Source: Escherichia coli (GTDB taxonomy: Bacteria; Pseudomonadota; Gammaproteobacteria; Enterobacterales; Enterobacteriaceae). Taken from it: 64,000 nucleotides of DNA. Made by a program: the position numbers and the translations under genes. The stretch lies in assembly GCF_011045215.1 (NCBI RefSeq), contig NZ_CP049201.1. The stretch is one strand, 5' to 3'. Under the pieces are notes generated by a model. That model did no database searches. It was not told where the DNA came from and saw only the letters and a program-made list of their open reading frames with translations. Shown here piece after piece: positions 1 to 17,300 of this stretch (position 1 is its first letter; each line of letters starts with the position of its first letter).

Positions 1-1
1 T

Positions 2-514
2 TTCTCTGGCGAGCTGGAAACCTTCCTGCTGATGGCGCGCGACGAGCAGGACGATCCGCTCAATCTGAAAGGTTCCTTTGCCGGGGCGATGGGCTACGGA
101 CAGTTTATGCCGTCGTCTTACAAACAATATGCGGTAGATTTCAGCGGCGACGGGCATATCAACCTGTGGGATCCGGTTGATGCGATCGGTAGCGTGGCGA
201 ATTATTTCAAAGCGCACGGCTGGGTGAAAGGCGATCAGGTCGCGGTAATGGCAAACGGTCAGGCTCCAGGCTTGCCAAATGGCTTCAAAACCAGGTACAG
301 CATTTCGCAGCTTGCCGCGGCAGGTTTAACGCCACAGCAGCCGCTGGGCAACCATCAACAAGCCAGCCTGCTGCGTCTGGATGTTGGAACAGGTTACCAG
401 TACTGGTACGGTCTGCCGAACTTCTACACCATTACCCGTTATAACCACAGTACCCATTACGCAATGGCGGTCTGGCAGTTAGGACAAGCCGTGGCGCTGG
501 CGCGCGTGCAGTAA
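2..514 (+). CDS. mltB: membrane-bound lytic murein transglycosylase B, 3' part (5' end lies outside window)
   Basis: ORF 32..514 stays open in frame to the window edge; translation contains MGYGQFMPSSY and ends ...AVWQLGQAVALARVQ; sits immediately upstream of pncC-recA as in E. coli. Confidence 0.75.
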   Translation, partial: FSGELETFLLMARDEQDDPLNLKGSFAGAMGYGQFMPSSYKQYAVDFSGDGHINLWDPVDAIGSVANYFKAHGWVKGDQVAVMANGQAPGLPNGFKTRYSISQLAAAGLTPQQPLGNHQQASLLRLDVGTGYQYWYGLPNFYTITRYNHSTHYAMAVWQLGQAVALARVQ

Positions 515-658
515 CTATTTGCAAGAGGGGGGCGTGAGCTTCCCTCTGGCTAATCAGCTTTTTTCTGAATCCTCCTCGTAAAATTGCAACGCCAACACCA
601 TCTTCCTGACGAAAGTGCTATCTTGTCCGGCATAAATTTTTGACTGACAGAGGTTGTG

Positions 659-1153
659 ATGACTGACAGTGAACTGATGCAGTTAAGCGAACAGGTTGGG
701 CAGGCGCTGAAAGCCCGTGGCGCAACCGTAACAACTGCTGAGTCTTGTACCGGCGGTTGGGTAGCGAAAGTGATTACCGATATTGCCGGCAGTTCCGCCT
801 GGTTTGAACGCGGATTTGTCACCTACAGTAACGAAGCCAAAGCGCAGATGATCGGCGTACGTGAAGAGACGCTGGCGCAGCATGGCGCGGTGAGTGAACC
901 CGTCGTGGTGGAAATGGCGATAGGTGCACTGAAAGCGGCTCGTGCTGATTATGCCGTGTCTATTAGTGGTATCGCCGGGCCGGATGGCGGCAGTGAAGAG
1001 AAGCCTGTCGGCACCGTCTGGTTTGCTTTTGCCACTGCCCGCGGTGAAGGCATTACCCGGCGGGAATGCTTCAGCGGCGACCGTGATGCGGTGCGCCGTC
1101 AGGCTACTGCGTATGCATTGCAGACCTTGTGGCAACAATTTCTACAAAACACT

Positions 1154-1156
<3 letters not shown>
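659..1156 (+). CDS. pncC: NMN amidohydrolase (CinA-like competence/damage-inducible protein)
   Basis: ORF 656..1156; translation MTDSELMQLSEQVGQALKARGATVTTAESCTGGW... recognised as E. coli PncC/YgaD; ATG at 659 preferred over GTG at 656. Confidence 0.9.
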
Positions 1157-2297
<1,141 letters not shown>

Positions 2298-2302
2298 TCG
2301 TT

Positions 2303-2489
2303 CGTTATTGATGATAATAGATAATGTGTGCACGGACGGTCCCCTCGCCCCTTTGGGGAGAGGGTTAGGGTGAGGGGAACAGGCCAGCACTGGCGTGAAA
2401 AATTACTCTCACCTAGATCCTCTAACGAATTGGGCCTGCGGGAACATTCTGCACACTCATTGACTATTAAATCTGTTTATCAGCAAAAC
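2303..2489. repeat. GC-rich palindromic intergenic insertion between recA stop and recA terminator (hairpin CCCCTCGCCCCTTTGGGGAGAGGG at 2341..2364; second inverted pair GGGTGAGGGG 2368..2377 / CTCTCACCTA 2407..2416)
   Basis: Inverted repeats read directly; recA-recX spacer here is 242 bp versus about 68 bp as I recall it in K-12. Confidence 0.6.
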
Positions 2490-2491
2490 CT

Positions 2492-2521
2492 GGGTCGCAT
2501 CTGCGGCCCTTTTGCTTTTTT
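2492..2521 (+). terminator. recA intrinsic terminator (GGGTCGCATCTGCGGCCC hairpin followed by TTTTGCTTTTTT)
   Basis: GC-rich stem plus T-tract immediately upstream of recX start. Confidence 0.75.
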
Positions 2522-2539
2522 AAGTTGTAAGGATATGCC

Positions 2540-3040
2540 ATGACAGAATCAACGTCCCGTCGCCCGGCATATGCTCGCCTGTTGGATCGTGCGGTACGCA
2601 TTCTGGCGGTGCGCGATCACAGTGAGCAAGAACTGCGACGTAAACTCGCGGCACCGATTATGGGCAAAAATGGCCCAGAAGAGATTGATGCTACGGCAGA
2701 AGATTACGAGCGCGTTATTGCCTGGTGCCATGAACATGGCTATCTCGATGACAGCCGATTTGTTGCGCGCTTTATCGCCAGCCGTAGCCGCAAAGGTTAT
2801 GGACCTGCGCGTATTCGCCAGGAACTGAATCAGAAAGGTATTTCCCGCGAAGCGACAGAAAAAGCGATGCGTGAATGTGACATCGACTGGTGCGCACTGG
2901 CGCGCGATCAGGCGACGCGAAAATATGGTGAACCTTTGCCAACTGTCTTTTCAGAAAAAGTTAAGATCCAGCGTTTTCTGCTCTATCGTGGCTATCTGAT
3001 GGAAGATATCCAGGATATTTGGCGAAATTTTGCCGACTGA
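2540..3040 (+). CDS. recX: RecA inhibitor RecX
   Basis: 166-aa [39 protein letters not shown]... directly downstream of recA. Confidence 0.95.
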
Positions 3041-3167
3041 ACGCATACGGTATTTTACTTCCCAGTCAAGAAAACTTATCTTATTCCCACTTTTCAGTTA
3101 CCAGCCCGGCGGTTAAGACACGCTGGAGCTGGTGGCGATATTTCGTTAGCTTGATTTCAGGATAATT

Positions 3168-5798
3168 ATGAGCAAGAGCACCGCTGAGATCCGTCAGGCG
3201 TTTCTCGACTTTTTCCATAGTAAGGGACATCAGGTAGTTGCCAGCAGCTCCCTGGTACCCCATAACGACCCAACTTTGTTGTTTACCAACGCCGGGATGA
3301 ACCAGTTCAAGGATGTGTTCCTTGGGCTCGACAAGCGTAATTATTCCCGCGCTACCACTTCCCAACGCTGCGTGCGTGCGGGTGGTAAACACAACGACCT
3401 GGAAAACGTCGGTTACACCGCGCGTCACCATACCTTCTTCGAAATGCTGGGCAACTTCAGCTTCGGCGACTATTTCAAACACGATGCCATTCAGTTTGCA
3501 TGGGAACTGCTGACCAGCGCAAATTGGTTTGCCCTGCCGAAAGAGCGTCTGTGGGTTACCGTCTATGAAAGCGACGACGAAGCCTACGAAATCTGGGAAA
3601 AAGAAGTCGGGATCCCGCGCGAACGTATTATTCGCATCGGCGATAACAAAGGTGCGCCATACGCATCTGACAACTTCTGGCAGATGGGTGACACTGGTCC
3701 GTGCGGCCCGTGCACCGAAATCTTCTACGATCACGGCGACCACATTTGGGGTGGCCCTCCGGGAAGTCCGGAAGAAGACGGCGACCGCTACATTGAGATC
3801 TGGAACATCGTCTTCATGCAGTTCAACCGCCAGGCCGATGGCACGATGGAACCGCTGCCGAAGCCGTCTGTAGATACCGGTATGGGTCTGGAGCGTATTG
3901 CTGCGGTGCTGCAACACGTTAACTCTAACTATGACATCGACCTGTTCCGCACGTTGATCCAGGCGGTAGCGAAAGTCACTGGCGCAACCGATCTGAGCAA
4001 TAAATCGCTGCGCGTAATCGCTGACCACATTCGTTCTTGTGCGTTCCTGATCGCGGATGGCGTAATGCCGTCCAATGAAAACCGTGGTTATGTACTGCGT
4101 CGTATCATTCGTCGCGCAGTGCGTCACGGTAATATGCTCGGCGCGAAAGAAACCTTCTTCTACAAACTGGTTGGTCCGCTGATCGACGTTATGGGCTCTG
4201 CGGGTGAAGACCTGAAACGCCAGCAGGCGCAGGTTGAGCAGGTGCTGAAGACTGAAGAAGAGCAGTTTGCTCGTACTCTGGAGCGCGGTCTGGCGTTGCT
4301 GGATGAAGAGCTGGCAAAACTTTCTGGTGATACGCTGGATGGTGAAACTGCTTTCCGTCTGTACGACACCTATGGCTTCCCGGTTGACCTGACGGCTGAT
4401 GTTTGTCGTGAGCGCAACATCAAAGTTGACGAAGCTGGTTTTGAAGCTGCAATGGAAGAGCAGCGTCGTCGCGCGCGCGAAGCCAGCGGCTTTGGTGCCG
4501 ATTACAACGCAATGATCCGTGTTGACAGTGCATCTGAATTTAAAGGCTATGACCATCTGGAACTGAACGGCAAAGTGACCGCGCTGTTTGTTGATGGTAA
4601 AGCGGTTGATGCCATCAATGCAGGCCAGGAAGCTGTGGTCGTGCTGGATCAAACGCCATTCTATGCGGAATCCGGCGGTCAGGTTGGTGATAAAGGCGAA
4701 CTGAAAGGCGCTAACTTCTCCTTCGTGGTGGAAGATACGCAGAAATACGGCCAGGCGATTGGTCACATCGGTAAACTTGCTGCGGGTTCTCTGAAAGTGG
4801 GCGACGCTGTGCAGGCTGATGTTGATGAGGCTCGTCGCGCCCGTATTCGTCTGAATCACTCCGCAACGCACCTGATGCATGCTGCGCTGCGCCAGGTTCT
4901 GGGTACTCATGTATCGCAGAAAGGTTCACTGGTTAACGACAAGGTGCTGCGCTTCGACTTCTCACACAACGAAGCGATGAAACCAGAAGAGATTCGTGCG
5001 GTCGAAGACCTGGTGAACGCACAGATTCGTCGCAATTTGCCGATCGAAACCAACATCATGGATCTCGAAGCGGCGAAAGCGAAAGGTGCGATGGCGCTGT
5101 TCGGCGAGAAGTATGATGAGCGCGTACGCGTGCTGAGCATGGGCGATTTCTCCACCGAGCTGTGTGGCGGTACTCACGCCAGCCGCACTGGTGATATTGG
5201 TCTGTTCCGCATCATCTCTGAATCGGGTACTGCTGCAGGCGTTCGTCGTATCGAAGCGGTAACCGGAGAAGGTGCTATCGCCACCGTTCATGCAGACAGC
5301 GATCGCTTAAGCGAAGTCGCGCATCTGCTGAAAGGCGATAGCAATAATCTGGCTGATAAAGTGCGCTCAGTACTGGAACGTACGCGTCAGTTAGAAAAAG
5401 AACTACAACAGCTTAAAGAACAAGCTGCCGCACAGGAGAGCGCAAATCTTTCCAGTAAGGCAATTGATGTTAATGGTGTTAAGCTGTTGGTTAGCGAGCT
5501 TAGCGGTGTTGAGCCGAAAATGTTGCGTACCATGGTTGACGATTTAAAAAATCAGCTGGGGTCGACAATTATCGTGCTGGCAACGGTAGCCGAAGGTAAG
5601 GTTTCTCTGATTGCAGGCGTATCTAAGGACGTCACAGATCGTGTGAAAGCAGGGGAACTGATTGGTATGGTCGCTCAGCAGGTGGGCGGCAAGGGTGGTG
5701 GACGTCCTGACATGGCGCAAGCCGGTGGTACGGATGCTGCGGCCTTACCTGCAGCGTTAGCCAGTGTGAAAGGCTGGGTCAGCGCGAAATTGCAATAA
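3168..5798 (+). CDS. alaS: alanine--tRNA ligase
   Basis: 876-aa [27 protein letters not shown]...; class II aaRS motifs; conserved position. Confidence 0.98.
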
Positions 5799-6032
5799 TA
5801 TAAGCGTCAGGCAATGCCGTGGACTCGCTTCACGGCATTCGCATTAACGCTATCGACAACGATAAAGTCAGGTTGAAGTTGTGTATATCGGCTAAACTTA
5901 GGTTTAACAGAATGTAATGCCATGACTGCTTAGATGTAATGTGTTTGTCATTGCTTACTTTTTGGCGTTATATGATGGATAATGCCGGGATACAGAGAGA
6001 CCCGACTCTTTTAATCTTTCAAGGAGCAAAGA

Positions 6033-6218
6033 ATGCTGATTCTGACTCGTCGAGTTGGTGAGACCCTCATGATTGGGGATGAGGTCACCGTGACAGTTTT
6101 AGGGGTAAAGGGCAACCAGGTACGTATTGGCGTAAATGCCCCGAAGGAAGTTTCTGTTCACCGTGAAGAGATCTACCAGCGTATCCAGGCTGAAAAATCC
6201 CAGCAGTCCAGTTACTAA
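6033..6218 (+). CDS. csrA: carbon storage regulator CsrA
   Basis: 61-aa [64 protein letters not shown]. Confidence 0.98.
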
Positions 6219-6226
6219 TCTTTCCG

Positions 6227-6252
6227 CGTCTCATCTTTATCGGTGAGACGCA
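6227..6252 (+). terminator. candidate csrA terminator hairpin (GCGTCTCA...TGAGACGC)
   Basis: Perfect 8-bp inverted repeat 9 nt after csrA stop; weak T-tract. Confidence 0.35.
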
Positions 6253-6533
6253 CCCTCAAAATTTCTCCTTCACTCTATAGTCTTTTCGCTTTACTCCCGT
6301 TCATTCAACTTAAGTCTCCATTTTTTTACATTACTGCTATCTGTCAGACCTCCGTTTTTCTGTTGATAAAACACTCTTTTTGACGTTTTTACAGACTAAT
6401 TGAGCGTGAAGTGTGCAAACGATAAAAGTGTGGGAAAAATTGTTTGACTTATAAGTCTCAGAAAGTAATATGTGCGCCACGCAGCGACGATGAGCGATAA
6501 ACAAGTTCTTCGAAGCACTCGTAAGAGGCGTGT

Positions 6534-6626
6534 GGTGAGGTGGCCGAGAGGCTGAAGGCGCTCCCCTGCTAAGGGAGTATGCGGTCAAAAGCTGCATCCG
6601 GGGTTCGAATCCCCGCCTCACCGCCA
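6534..6626 (+). tRNA. serV: tRNA-Ser (anticodon GCU)
   Basis: GGTGAGGTGGCCGAGAGGCTGAAGG...GGTTCGAATCCCCGCCTCACCGCCA with long variable arm; matches E. coli serV from memory. Confidence 0.95.
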
Positions 6627-6629
6627 TTT

Positions 6630-6706
6630 GCATCCGTAGCTCAGCTGGATAGAGTACTCGGCTACGAACCGAGCGGTCGGAGGTTCGAATCCTCCCGGAT
6701 GCACCA
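6630..6706 (+). tRNA. argV: tRNA-Arg (anticodon ACG), copy 1
   Basis: GCATCCGTAGCTCAGCTGGATAGAGTACTCGGCTACGAACCGAGCGGTCGGAGGTTCGAATCCTCCCGGATGCACCA, 77 nt. Confidence 0.95.
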
Positions 6707-6905
6707 TATTCTCCGAAATCTTCAGCAATGAAGATATCGAAGAGGTAGCGGAATTAACCGCAGGCACCAGGAAGGATAACGTTGCTTTAGCAACGGCCCG
6801 AAGGGCGAGCCGCAAGGCGAGTAATCCTCCCGGATGCACCATCTCTTACTTGATACGGCTTTAGTAGCGGTATCAAAAAATCTGCAGTAAAGTAAGTTTC
6901 CCGAT

Positions 6906-6982
6906 GCATCCGTAGCTCAGCTGGATAGAGTACTCGGCTACGAACCGAGCGGTCGGAGGTTCGAATCCTCCCGGATGCACCA
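6906..6982 (+). tRNA. argY: tRNA-Arg (anticodon ACG), copy 2
   Basis: Identical 77-nt tRNA-Arg sequence; symbol assigned by order only. Confidence 0.93.
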
Positions 6983-7181
6983 TATTCTCCGAAATCTTCA
7001 GCAATGAAGATATCGAAGAGGTAGCGGAATTAACCGCAGGCACCAGGAAGGATAACGTTGCTTTAGCAACGGCCCGAAGGGCGAGCCGCAAGGCGAGTAA
7101 TCCTCCCGGATGCACCATCTCTTACTTGATACGGCTTTAGTAGCGGTATCAAAAAATCTGCAGTAAAGTAAGTTTCCCGAT

Positions 7182-7258
7182 GCATCCGTAGCTCAGCTGG
7201 ATAGAGTACTCGGCTACGAACCGAGCGGTCGGAGGTTCGAATCCTCCCGGATGCACCA
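7182..7258 (+). tRNA. argZ: tRNA-Arg (anticodon ACG), copy 3
   Basis: Identical 77-nt tRNA-Arg sequence; symbol assigned by order only. Confidence 0.93.
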
Positions 7259-7457
7259 TATTCTCCGAAATCTTCAGCAATGAAGATATCGAAGAGGTAG
7301 CGGAATTAACCGCAGGCACCAGGAAGGATAACGTTGCTTTAGCAACGGCCCGAAGGGCGAGCCGCAAGGCGAGTAATCCTCCCGGATGCACCATCTCTTA
7401 CTTGATACGGCTTTAGTAGCGGTATCAAAAAATCTGCAGTAAAGTAAGTTTCCCGAT

Positions 7458-7534
7458 GCATCCGTAGCTCAGCTGGATAGAGTACTCGGCTACGAACCGA
7501 GCGGTCGGAGGTTCGAATCCTCCCGGATGCACCA
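7458..7534 (+). tRNA. argQ: tRNA-Arg (anticodon ACG), copy 4
   Basis: Identical 77-nt tRNA-Arg sequence; symbol assigned by order only. Confidence 0.93.
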
Positions 7535-7814
7535 TATTCTCCGAAATCTTCAGCAATGAAGATATCGAAGAGGTAGCGGAATTAACCGCAGGCACCAGGA
7601 AGGATAACGTTGCTTTAGCAACGGCCCGAAGGGCGAACGCCAGTGAGTCATCCTCCCGGATGCACCATCTTCTCCAAAAAATTTCCTTCAAAAATATCTC
7701 ATTTCTAAATAACTACTTTATCCATTTCCTGAATTTTCTTCTCCTTCGCCATCAGCGACAAAATCAAGCAATTACGCTAAAGTAGCGTCATATTTTTCGA
7801 CTTGCGAGAAGACC

Positions 7815-8381
7815 ATGTACGAGCGTTATGCAGGTTTAATTTTTGATATGGATGGCACAATCCTGGATACGGAGCCTACGCACCGTAAAGCGTGGCGCGA
7901 AGTATTAGGGCACTACGGTCTTCAGTACGATATTCAGGCGATGATTGCGCTTAATGGATCGCCCACCTGGCGTATTGCTCAGGCAATTATTGAGCTGAAT
8001 CAGGCCGATCTCGACCCGCATGCGTTAGCGCGTGAAAAAACAGAAGCAGTAAGAAGTATGCTGCTGGATAGTGTCGAGCCGCTTCCTCTTGTTGAAGTGG
8101 TGAAAAGTTGGCATGGTCGTCGCCCAATGGCTGTAGGAACGGGGAGTGAAAGCGCCATCGCTGAGGCATTGCTGGCGCACCTGGGATTACGTCGTTATTT
8201 TGACGCCGTCGTCGCTGCTGATCACGTCAAACACCATAAACCCGCGCCAGACACATTTTTGTTGTGCGCGCAGCGTATGGGCGTGCAACCGACGCAGTGT
8301 GTGGTCTTTGAAGATGCCGATTTCGGTATTCAGGCGGCCCGTGCCGCAGGCATGGACGCTGTGGATGTTCGCTTGCTGTGA
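7815..8381 (+). CDS. yqaB: HAD-family sugar phosphatase (fructose-1-phosphate phosphatase)
   Basis: 188-aa ORF with HAD motif I (IFDMDGTILDTE). Confidence 0.9.
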   Translation: MYERYAGLIFDMDGTILDTEPTHRKAWREVLGHYGLQYDIQAMIALNGSPTWRIAQAIIELNQADLDPHALAREKTEAVRSMLLDSVEPLPLVEVVKSWHGRRPMAVGTGSESAIAEALLAHLGLRRYFDAVVAADHVKHHKPAPDTFLLCAQRMGVQPTQCVVFEDADFGIQAARAAGMDAVDVRLL

Positions 8382-8806
8382 GTGAAGCGTTATCGCTTTT
8401 CTCATTGTTTGCCAGTAGTTTTCTCAGCGCTACACTATTACCCGGCAACTCCGAAGTCGTGCTGGTGGCAATGTTGCTTTCCGGGATCAGTCATCCCTGG
8501 GTTTTAGTTTTAACAGCAACAATGGGTAATAGCCTTGGAGGGTTAACTAACGTTATCCTTGGGCGTTTCTTTCCACTGCGTAAAACATCGCGCTGGCAAG
8601 AGAAAGCTACCGGCTGGCTGAAACGCTATGGTGCAGTCACGCTATTATTAAGCTGGATGCCCGTGGTTGGCGATTTACTGTGTCTGTTAGCGGGATGGAT
8701 GCGCATCTCCTGGGGGCCGGTAATCTTTTTTTTGTGCCTTGGTAAAGCGTTACGCTATGTTGCAGTTGCAGCAGCGACCGTTCAGGGCATGATGTGGTGG
8801 CACTAA
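8378..8806 (+). CDS. yqaA: DedA-like inner membrane protein
   Basis: 142-aa hydrophobic ORF overlapping yqaB stop (GTGA coupling). Confidence 0.85.
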   Translation: MSEALSLFSLFASSFLSATLLPGNSEVVLVAMLLSGISHPWVLVLTATMGNSLGGLTNVILGRFFPLRKTSRWQEKATGWLKRYGAVTLLLSWMPVVGDLLCLLAGWMRISWGPVIFFLCLGKALRYVAVAAATVQGMMWWH

Positions 8807-8851
8807 TTGTAGGCCTGCACATATGGTCACCATTACAGTTATGCTAATTAA

Positions 8852-10435
<1,584 letters not shown>

Positions 10436-17110: not shown

Positions 17111-17291
<181 letters not shown>

Positions 17292-17300
17292 GAATAAAAA

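Follow-up and report, generated by a model that had tools for sequence, protein, structure and literature searches.

The recA-recX insert of Escherichia coli as a catalogued, polymorphic BoxC (PIT/TMECO) repeat

BoxC is a repeat that occurs between the genes of E. coli and some other enterobacteria; it is non-coding and non-autonomous, and no enzyme is known to mobilise it. The early reports on BoxC and PIT elements are said to be those of Bergler in 1992, Bachellier in 1996, and Hoyne and Maher in 2000-2002. First reported under the name BoxC in the 1990s, the repeat received a second description in 2000, as the potential intrastrand triplex (PIT) element, and corresponds to what is now called TMECO (PMC4666352). 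Published TMECO counts are 26-30 in B1 strains, 19-24 in A, 10-11 in O157/O55 and 1-2 in B2 (PMC4666352 supplement), and Holder et al. reported no transposase or integrase remnants near TMECOs (PMC4666352). This literature covers the motif of 34-37 nt; a unit of about 190 nt with conserved arms, and a location between recA and recX, are absent from the published descriptions.

Among the other short repeats with which a structured intergenic insert has to be compared, the BIME/REP family (PU; BIME-1-like pairs) consists of extragenic palindromic mosaics found beside terminators in 3'UTRs, and BIME-1 has named flank motifs. REP has an associated tyrosine transposase (TnpA-REP/RAYT), which is not known to be linked to BoxC. 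MITEs such as ERIC/IRU, Correia and RUP are a further group, and REP325-type elements act as regulators in 3'UTRs.

The window analysed here is a stretch of 64,000 nucleotides from E. coli, in which the coordinates of the open reading frames place 242 bp (2298-2539) between recA and recX. An earlier note on this DNA had given the same 242 bp against about 68 bp in K-12, and the comparison with empty sites agrees, the spacer being 68 bp in the K-12-like strain WG5, 68 bp in CFT073 and 67 bp in O157:H7 1130. Window and empty alleles are identical in alignment through 2301 and again from 2492 onward. The net gain over the short allele is 174 bp, with 190 nt (2302-2491) standing where the short allele has CTTGTTTGATACACAA (16 nt), so that the limits of 2303-2489 first proposed for the insert were essentially exact. 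The same alignment of filled and empty alleles reveals no direct repeat at the junctions and hence no target-site duplication, and the junction is not clean, since 16 nt were replaced and not merely interrupted. The element had also been placed upstream of a retained recA terminator, and the hairpin that begins at 2492 is indeed unaltered in the alignment. The features of the region are as follows.

1236..2297, + strand: recA coding sequence, 353 aa, MAIDENKQ...NEDF, with the stop codon at 2295-2297 (open reading frame list, translation, and annotation of matching E. coli records).
2302..2491, + strand: complete insert, 190 nt long against 16 nt at this place in the short allele, assigned to the long paired form of BoxC/PIT/TMECO (empty-site and family alignments).
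2303..2330, + strand: left outer arm (shell), TTGATGATAATAG..., akin to the flank GATGACAAAGT.AAAA that other long BoxC copies and some BIMEs have; 52% to consensus; one of the inverted-repeat arms.
2331..2341, + strand: pre-box CACGGACGGTC, family consensus GC.CGGAC.GTC, common to 15 of 15 aligned copies; 9/11 to consensus.
2342..2377, + strand: BoxC, TMECO type A 'mm', CCCTCGCCCC-TTT-GGGGAGAGGG-TTA-GGGTGAGGGG; 36/36 to consensus and in accordance with the published pattern.
2378..2405, + strand: central spacer AACAGGCCAGCACTGGCGTGAAAAATTA, which holds the small hairpin GCCAGCACTGGC; 23/26 to consensus; apical loop region of the predicted fold.
2406..2441, + strand: decayed inverted partner, apparently from a type-B BoxC on the opposite strand, with its C-runs broken and outside the BoxC pattern; 23/36 to consensus.
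2463..2491, + strand: right outer arm (shell), ...CTGTTTATCAGCAAAACCT, abutting the terminator hairpin (family alignments and fold).
2492..2521, + strand: recA intrinsic terminator, hairpin GGGTCGCATCTGCGGCCC (2492-2509) followed by TTTTGCTTTTTT (terminator scan); the same in the K-12-like strain and CFT073, with the hairpin kept in both predicted folds.
2540..3040, + strand: recX coding sequence, 166 aa, whose upstream AAGGATATGCC ATG region is the same as in the short allele (open reading frame list, annotation and alignment).

The core at 2342-2377, CCCTCGCCCCTTTGGGGAGAGGGTTAGGGTGAGGGG, is letter for letter the 36-mer designated 'TMECO type A mm', and is the same as K-12 TMECO nos. 7, 11 and 15 (Table 1, PMC4666352) and IAI1 no. 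208. It has one C-block and two G-blocks, could form an intrastrand triplex, and with its four G-runs agrees with a G-quadruplex pattern as well. When the window was scanned with the TMECO pattern CCCTCNCCC N3-6 GGGNGAGGG N3 GGGNGAGGG, a single exact match was obtained, at 2342-2376, and the GC-rich core pattern had 0 matches in 100 shuffles. Pattern and similarity scans detected no second BoxC copy or shell motifs elsewhere within the 64-kb window. Of 5,426 complete E. coli genomes, 5,424 held related places in a sensitive search with the insert alone (median 17 per genome, range 1-30); 49 of the 82,645 places were plasmid-borne. These per-genome counts are in agreement with the published TMECO counts (PMC4666352 supplement). 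The segment is multi-copy, and not the single-copy sequence without palindromic relatives that the earlier note had allowed for, just as the K-12-like spacer is short and not of the length seen here. Homologous long copies lie at sstT-alx, yggL-yggN, yijF-gldA, gcvP-ygfF and cca-bacA, and the related copies elsewhere are intergenic, as is the copy between recA and recX.

Because the 36-mer fits the published pattern, equals TMECO type A mm and has homologous copies elsewhere, we identify 2302-2491, from its sequence, as one copy of BoxC (PIT/TMECO). It agrees with this family in the 36-nt core, the intergenic position, the multi-copy occurrence (26-30 in B1) and its own entry in Table S8 of PMC4666352. 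The B1 reference strain IAI1 makes the last point explicit: its recX runs to 2867247 and its recA begins at 2867490, so that the spacer is 242 bp, and the geometry of the window predicts the BoxC at 2867445-2867410. Holder et al. (2015) list TMECO no. 208 of IAI1 at 2867445-2867410 in Table S8, with the same sequence as the window copy, and give no flanking gene names for it (PMC4666352). A literature search for polymorphism of the E. coli recA-recX spacer turned up nothing relevant. Of the earlier reading, the structural part stands, namely a GC-rich palindromic mini-element that K-12 does not have here and that has many relatives, whereas the family name BoxC/PIT/TMECO had not been recognised. 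The family has been on record for about 30 years, the window copy is already tabulated, and it can be taken as an ordinary polymorphism. An odd-looking insert beside a central DNA-repair gene is in this case a catalogued selfish or neutral repeat, which carries little weight alone.

We analysed the organization of the copy with a family alignment composed of the insert, sstT-alx (K-12), yggL-yggN, yijF-gldA, gcvP-ygfF, cca-bacA and eight more K-12 loci, and scored the identity of each segment against the consensus of four full-length BoxC copies, to which the outer arms show 52-56%. The pre-box (GC.CGGAC.GTC) and the type-A BoxC are common to all aligned copies. A subset forms long units of about 180-190 bp, which run from the left arm (...GATGACAAAGT.AAAA...) through the pre-box, BoxC-A, a 28-nt spacer and an inverted type-B BoxC to the right arm (...CAGTTTGTTAGCAATCTCAAA). 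The nested GC-rich inverted repeats described in the earlier note are present as three nested arm pairs between 2308 and 2486: 2340-2350/2368-2378 (11 nt, 91%) lies within 2315-2344/2440-2469 (30 nt, 70%), and this in turn lies within 2308-2317/2477-2486. The best local alignment of the arms matched 18 of 20 columns with one 2-nt gap; in other BoxC copies the arms share just 7-12 nt. The pairing of an A-type with an inverted B-type box is the one seen at five K-12 loci, but the inverted partner of the window copy has decayed below the motif definition (type A has a TTA loop and type B a CCG loop). In its arrangement the recA-recX copy is of the long type, a paired form whose inverted partner has decayed, and what its sequence preserves of the palindrome is half decayed.

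The decay is asymmetric: BoxC-A has kept 36/36 positions against 23/36 in the inverted partner, in which nearly all C-runs are broken, and Escherichia sp. E1V33 shows the same. Selection or gene conversion, and not passive decay, could account for such an asymmetry. The selection could have disfavoured a long palindrome kept perfect within a spacer that is transcribed, and the conversion could have been a homogenisation of type-A boxes.

The element resembles MITEs in being shorter than 200 bp, non-coding and multi-copy, in its transcribed intergenic site and in a long RNA hairpin, which is predicted for the window element. Its terminal inverted repeats are imperfect and of little length and strength (a core of 9 nt; in the window copy 30 nt at 70%), a target-site duplication is missing, no cognate transposase is known for BoxC, and most members of the BoxC family are bare cores without arms. 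In view of the missing duplication, the weakness of the terminal repeats and the lack of a known transposase, we do not call the element a bona fide MITE.

Of the 5,426 complete E. coli genomes, 1,634 (30%) carry the long allele; they have the junctions of the window and are 98.4-99.5% identical to it across the insert, and the remainder have the short allele. Its carriers include IAI1 and strains labelled O111:H8, O103 and O128:H27. Beyond E. coli, Escherichia sp. E1V33 carries the filled allele with the same junctions and a divergence of about 4% as judged by eye, and Escherichia sp. MOD1-EC7003 carries a truncated BoxC element whose left junction is the same as in the window. Since the junctions are shared by the 1,634 genomes and E1V33, and the left one by MOD1-EC7003 as well, the data point to one old insertion that is now segregating by descent and homologous recombination. 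In some old lineage of Escherichia, a copy would have entered the recA-recX spacer once, directly 5' of the recA terminator hairpin, and the resulting presence/absence allele would now be maintained through vertical descent and homologous recombination. The recA and recX flanks of the window have 0/909 mismatches to the empty O157 allele, whereas those of the filled E1V33 allele differ from the window at 33/909 positions, and for this reason the history of the allele appears to involve recombination.

Among species representatives, the spacer measures 66-72 bp in most genera of the Enterobacteriaceae, and about 20 nt of it lie between stop codon and hairpin. Because this length is the norm, we take the short spacer to be the ancestral form. 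An origin of the K-12 short form as an excision scar was considered and rejected, since about 20 nt between stop codon and hairpin is the norm across genera.

Over positions 1-9000 of the window, the best of the 5,426 complete E. coli genomes reaches at most about 99.0% identity, and IAI1 98.5-99.2%. Despite that divergence, the 3' end of recA and the 5' end of recX are identical to those of an O157:H7 strain.

An allele that is present in about 30% of genomes and absent from the others offers a natural experiment on the effect of BoxC on mRNA stability or read-through, because it sits on otherwise near-identical recA and recX sequences. The stoichiometry of RecA to RecX is physiologically relevant, and the function of BoxC has been a question since the 1990s.

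The percentage of read-through from recA into recX is low. recX is co-transcribed with recA in E. coli, according to Pages et al. (2003) as cited in PMC3062782, and the element would be transcribed both within the recA 3'UTR and within the recA-recX read-through transcript, where it would fold into one long imperfect hairpin. Folded as RNA, 2285-2525 is predicted to form such a hairpin across the insert at -94.5 kcal/mol, compared with a shuffle mean of -65.3 (z = -6.8), and the short allele is predicted to fold at -18.7 kcal/mol. In the predicted fold of the long allele the terminator hairpin is intact and separate, and GCAAAA at the right end of the element pairs with the terminator U-tract. 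A terminator scan of 2200-2650 found the hairpin at 2492-2509, followed by TTTTGCTTTT, as the only terminator-like site, and a promoter scan of the same interval found no promoter-like site. We considered an internal recX promoter created by the insert and rejected it, as the promoter scan was empty. The ribosome-binding region and start codon of recX are the same as in the short allele by alignment. [quoted passage not shown]

The element would therefore appear to leave both the terminator and the translation signals of recX intact, and because these signals are intact, a tolerated passenger is the most likely interpretation. A quantitative effect of the predicted hairpin nevertheless has to be reckoned with, because REP repeats can act as combined terminator and stabiliser elements in a 3'UTR (bioRxiv 10.64898/2026.03.23.713779). 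Any such effect on recA/recX would probably be modest at most. Taken together, the identity as BoxC and the role of a tolerated passenger of this kind are in our judgement very probable. At the level of DNA, repeats of this type mark places where local sequence turnover is raised, and the recA-recX spacer behaves in this way across Escherichia.

It was proposed in the earlier note that the structured insert could change the recA:recX ratio and the 3'-end stability of recA mRNA. On this idea the BoxC would have been taken up as a cis-acting RNA regulator by the recA-recX operon, serving as a stabiliser of recA mRNA, a nuclease-processing site or a read-through attenuator, and carriers would differ in their RecA:RecX ratio. 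Such a role would suit an element that lies in the transcribed spacer of two co-transcribed genes (Pages et al. 2003, as cited in PMC3062782), 5' of the terminator, with a very stable predicted hairpin (z = -6.8) and a right-end GCAAAA predicted to pair with the terminator U-tract, and the activity of REP repeats as combined terminators and stabilisers in 3'UTRs (bioRxiv 10.64898/2026.03.23.713779) provides a precedent. The closest parallel is that of REP325-type 3'UTR regulators, in which a structured repeat also stands between co-transcribed genes and could stabilise the upstream message and limit read-through (bioRxiv 10.64898/2026.03.23.713779); however, that activity was shown for a REP array and not for BoxC, and the window element is followed by a separate intrinsic terminator. 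About 70% of E. coli are without the element, yet have the same RecA and a near-identical RecX, and copies of the BoxC family occur in all gene contexts and orientations (PMC4666352). PIT elements, as cited in the same paper, are without terminator or promoter activity, the terminator and the recX initiation region are unaltered here, and the element is conserved no better than its flanks, both showing about 4% divergence from E1V33. We consider recruitment as a regulator unlikely, and prefer the tolerated BoxC passenger.

An encoded product, either a 71-aa small protein or an independent small RNA gene, is a highly improbable explanation of the segment. An open frame with a GTG start (2328-2543) does cross the element, but it is made of repeat sequence and runs into recX, BoxC copies stand in either orientation and are often truncated, and there is no promoter-like site in 2200-2650. 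A permissive Rfam search of 2100-2700 gave no hit near threshold, the best scores being 18.4 and 15.3 bits against gathering thresholds of 40 and 37. The 71-codon frame ends inside the start region of recX, and is probably an artefact of the repeat sequence.

The element may also be considered at the level of DNA. An oligonucleotide of the identical TMECO type formed an intrastrand triplex in vitro, as determined by CD and NMR, and sequence variability was raised around TMECO loci (PMC4666352). It is therefore conceivable that the BoxC acts as a non-B-DNA motif (triplex, hairpin or G-quadruplex) beside the terminator, where slippage, repair and recombination would make a rearrangement hot spot. 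In line with this idea, the Escherichia recA-recX spacer is strikingly variable (window, E1V33, MOD1-EC7003 and E. albertii), and the BoxC pair at gcvP borders a presence/absence region. However, Holder et al. found no evidence of a stable triplex in vivo (PMC4666352), the filled allele is nearly invariant across the 1,634 E. coli genomes, and other genera without BoxC also have various inserts in the recA-recX spacer. Because these BoxC-less genera carry inserts, the hot spot may belong to the site, with its terminator hairpin and non-essential spacer, and not to BoxC. A hot spot caused by the BoxC itself is a rather unlikely explanation, and we retain the reading of a tolerated BoxC copy.

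Downstream of gcvP, genomes without the BoxC pair are also without ygfF and have bglA directly adjacent, and the BoxC pair after gcvP forms the boundary of a larger presence/absence region. The gcvP-ygfF comparison is uninformative on the ends of the element, since the BoxC-less genomes also lack ygfF.

Judged by the spacers compared, the stretch from the recA stop codon to the terminator is a repeated landing site across the Enterobacteriaceae. Spacers of 104-195 bp that result from unrelated inserts were observed in Silvania, Kluyvera, Raoultella terrigena, Superficieibacter, Citrobacter and Salmonella enterica subsp. arizonae, and the insert of Silvania confinis is an ERIC/IRU-like sequence. 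In Escherichia sp. MOD1-EC7003 the spacer is 1,022 bp long (479-1500 of the fetched segment), and the truncated BoxC is followed by a tandem array at 597-1471 with 5.1 copies of a 169-bp period and 94% matches, each unit consisting of a BIME together with one recA terminator hairpin. The E. albertii NBRC 107761 spacer (238 bp, 5' of recX at 1501) contains a REP pair (BIME) whose outer flank motifs are those of the window element, and on either side of it stands a terminator stem, GGGACGTATCTGCGAC and GGGTCGCATCTGCGGCCC. The window, where the cargo is BoxC, and E. albertii, where it is REP, have an identical right junction, CAGCAAAACCT-GGGTCGC.

The window element has several features in common with BIME/REP, being likewise an extragenic palindromic mosaic beside a terminator in a 3'UTR and having the outer flank motifs GATGACAAA... 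/ ...TTTGTYAKCAA, and REP and BoxC pairs occupy one position in different genomes at both yggL-yggN and recA-recX. It differs in that it contains no REP/PU, with no GTAG/CTAC-bounded palindrome, and in that the copy number of BoxC is far lower; a scan for y- or z-type REPs found none in 2302-2491. At yggL-yggN most genomes have a REP pair (BIME) and 65 of 5,426 a full BoxC pair, and the flanks ...CGGGCGATGACAAA and TTTGTTATCAATCTGGGGCC... are exactly alike in both alleles. The comparison of E. coli AF46 (360-610 of the fetched segment) with C600 (190-420) at this locus illustrates the exchange, as the same flanks ...GATGACAAA and TTTGTTATCAATCT... enclose a replaced cargo inside one shell. Since the yggL-yggN flanks are exact in both alleles and the right junction at recA-recX is identical, we suggest that BoxC pairs and REP pairs can swap inside the same short shell beside a terminator-like hairpin. 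Bachellier et al. in 1997 (Genetics 145:551) reportedly described boxC insertions at BIME loci.

A more general proposal would be that BoxC and REP pairs are interchangeable cargo in a common shell (GATGACAAA... / ...TTTGTYAKCAATCT) that lands beside terminator hairpins. Many BoxC copies in the family alignment are without the shell, and of eight REP matches in the fetched E. coli sequence, about 158 kb in all, just one more had a shell-like arrangement. Because only one of the eight was shell-like, the shell is a feature of a subset, and we put the general proposal forward tentatively, as a possibility that is rather unlikely to hold. If it were true, both repeat families would share one mechanism of insertion or exchange with the recA-recX spacer as a recurrent target, and about 30% of E. 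coli would, as a side effect, possess a naturally occurring variant form of the recA-recX transcript. A shared shell could also link the origins of the BoxC and BIME repeats, and this side observation may outweigh the main finding in value.

The window itself has REP-like palindromes (GGCGGATGCGGCGTAAACGCCTTATCCGCC) at 17161-17295 and 31322-31355. Two REP-like palindromes stand 100 bp apart with near-identical left flanks and look like a small tandem array of the BIME type.
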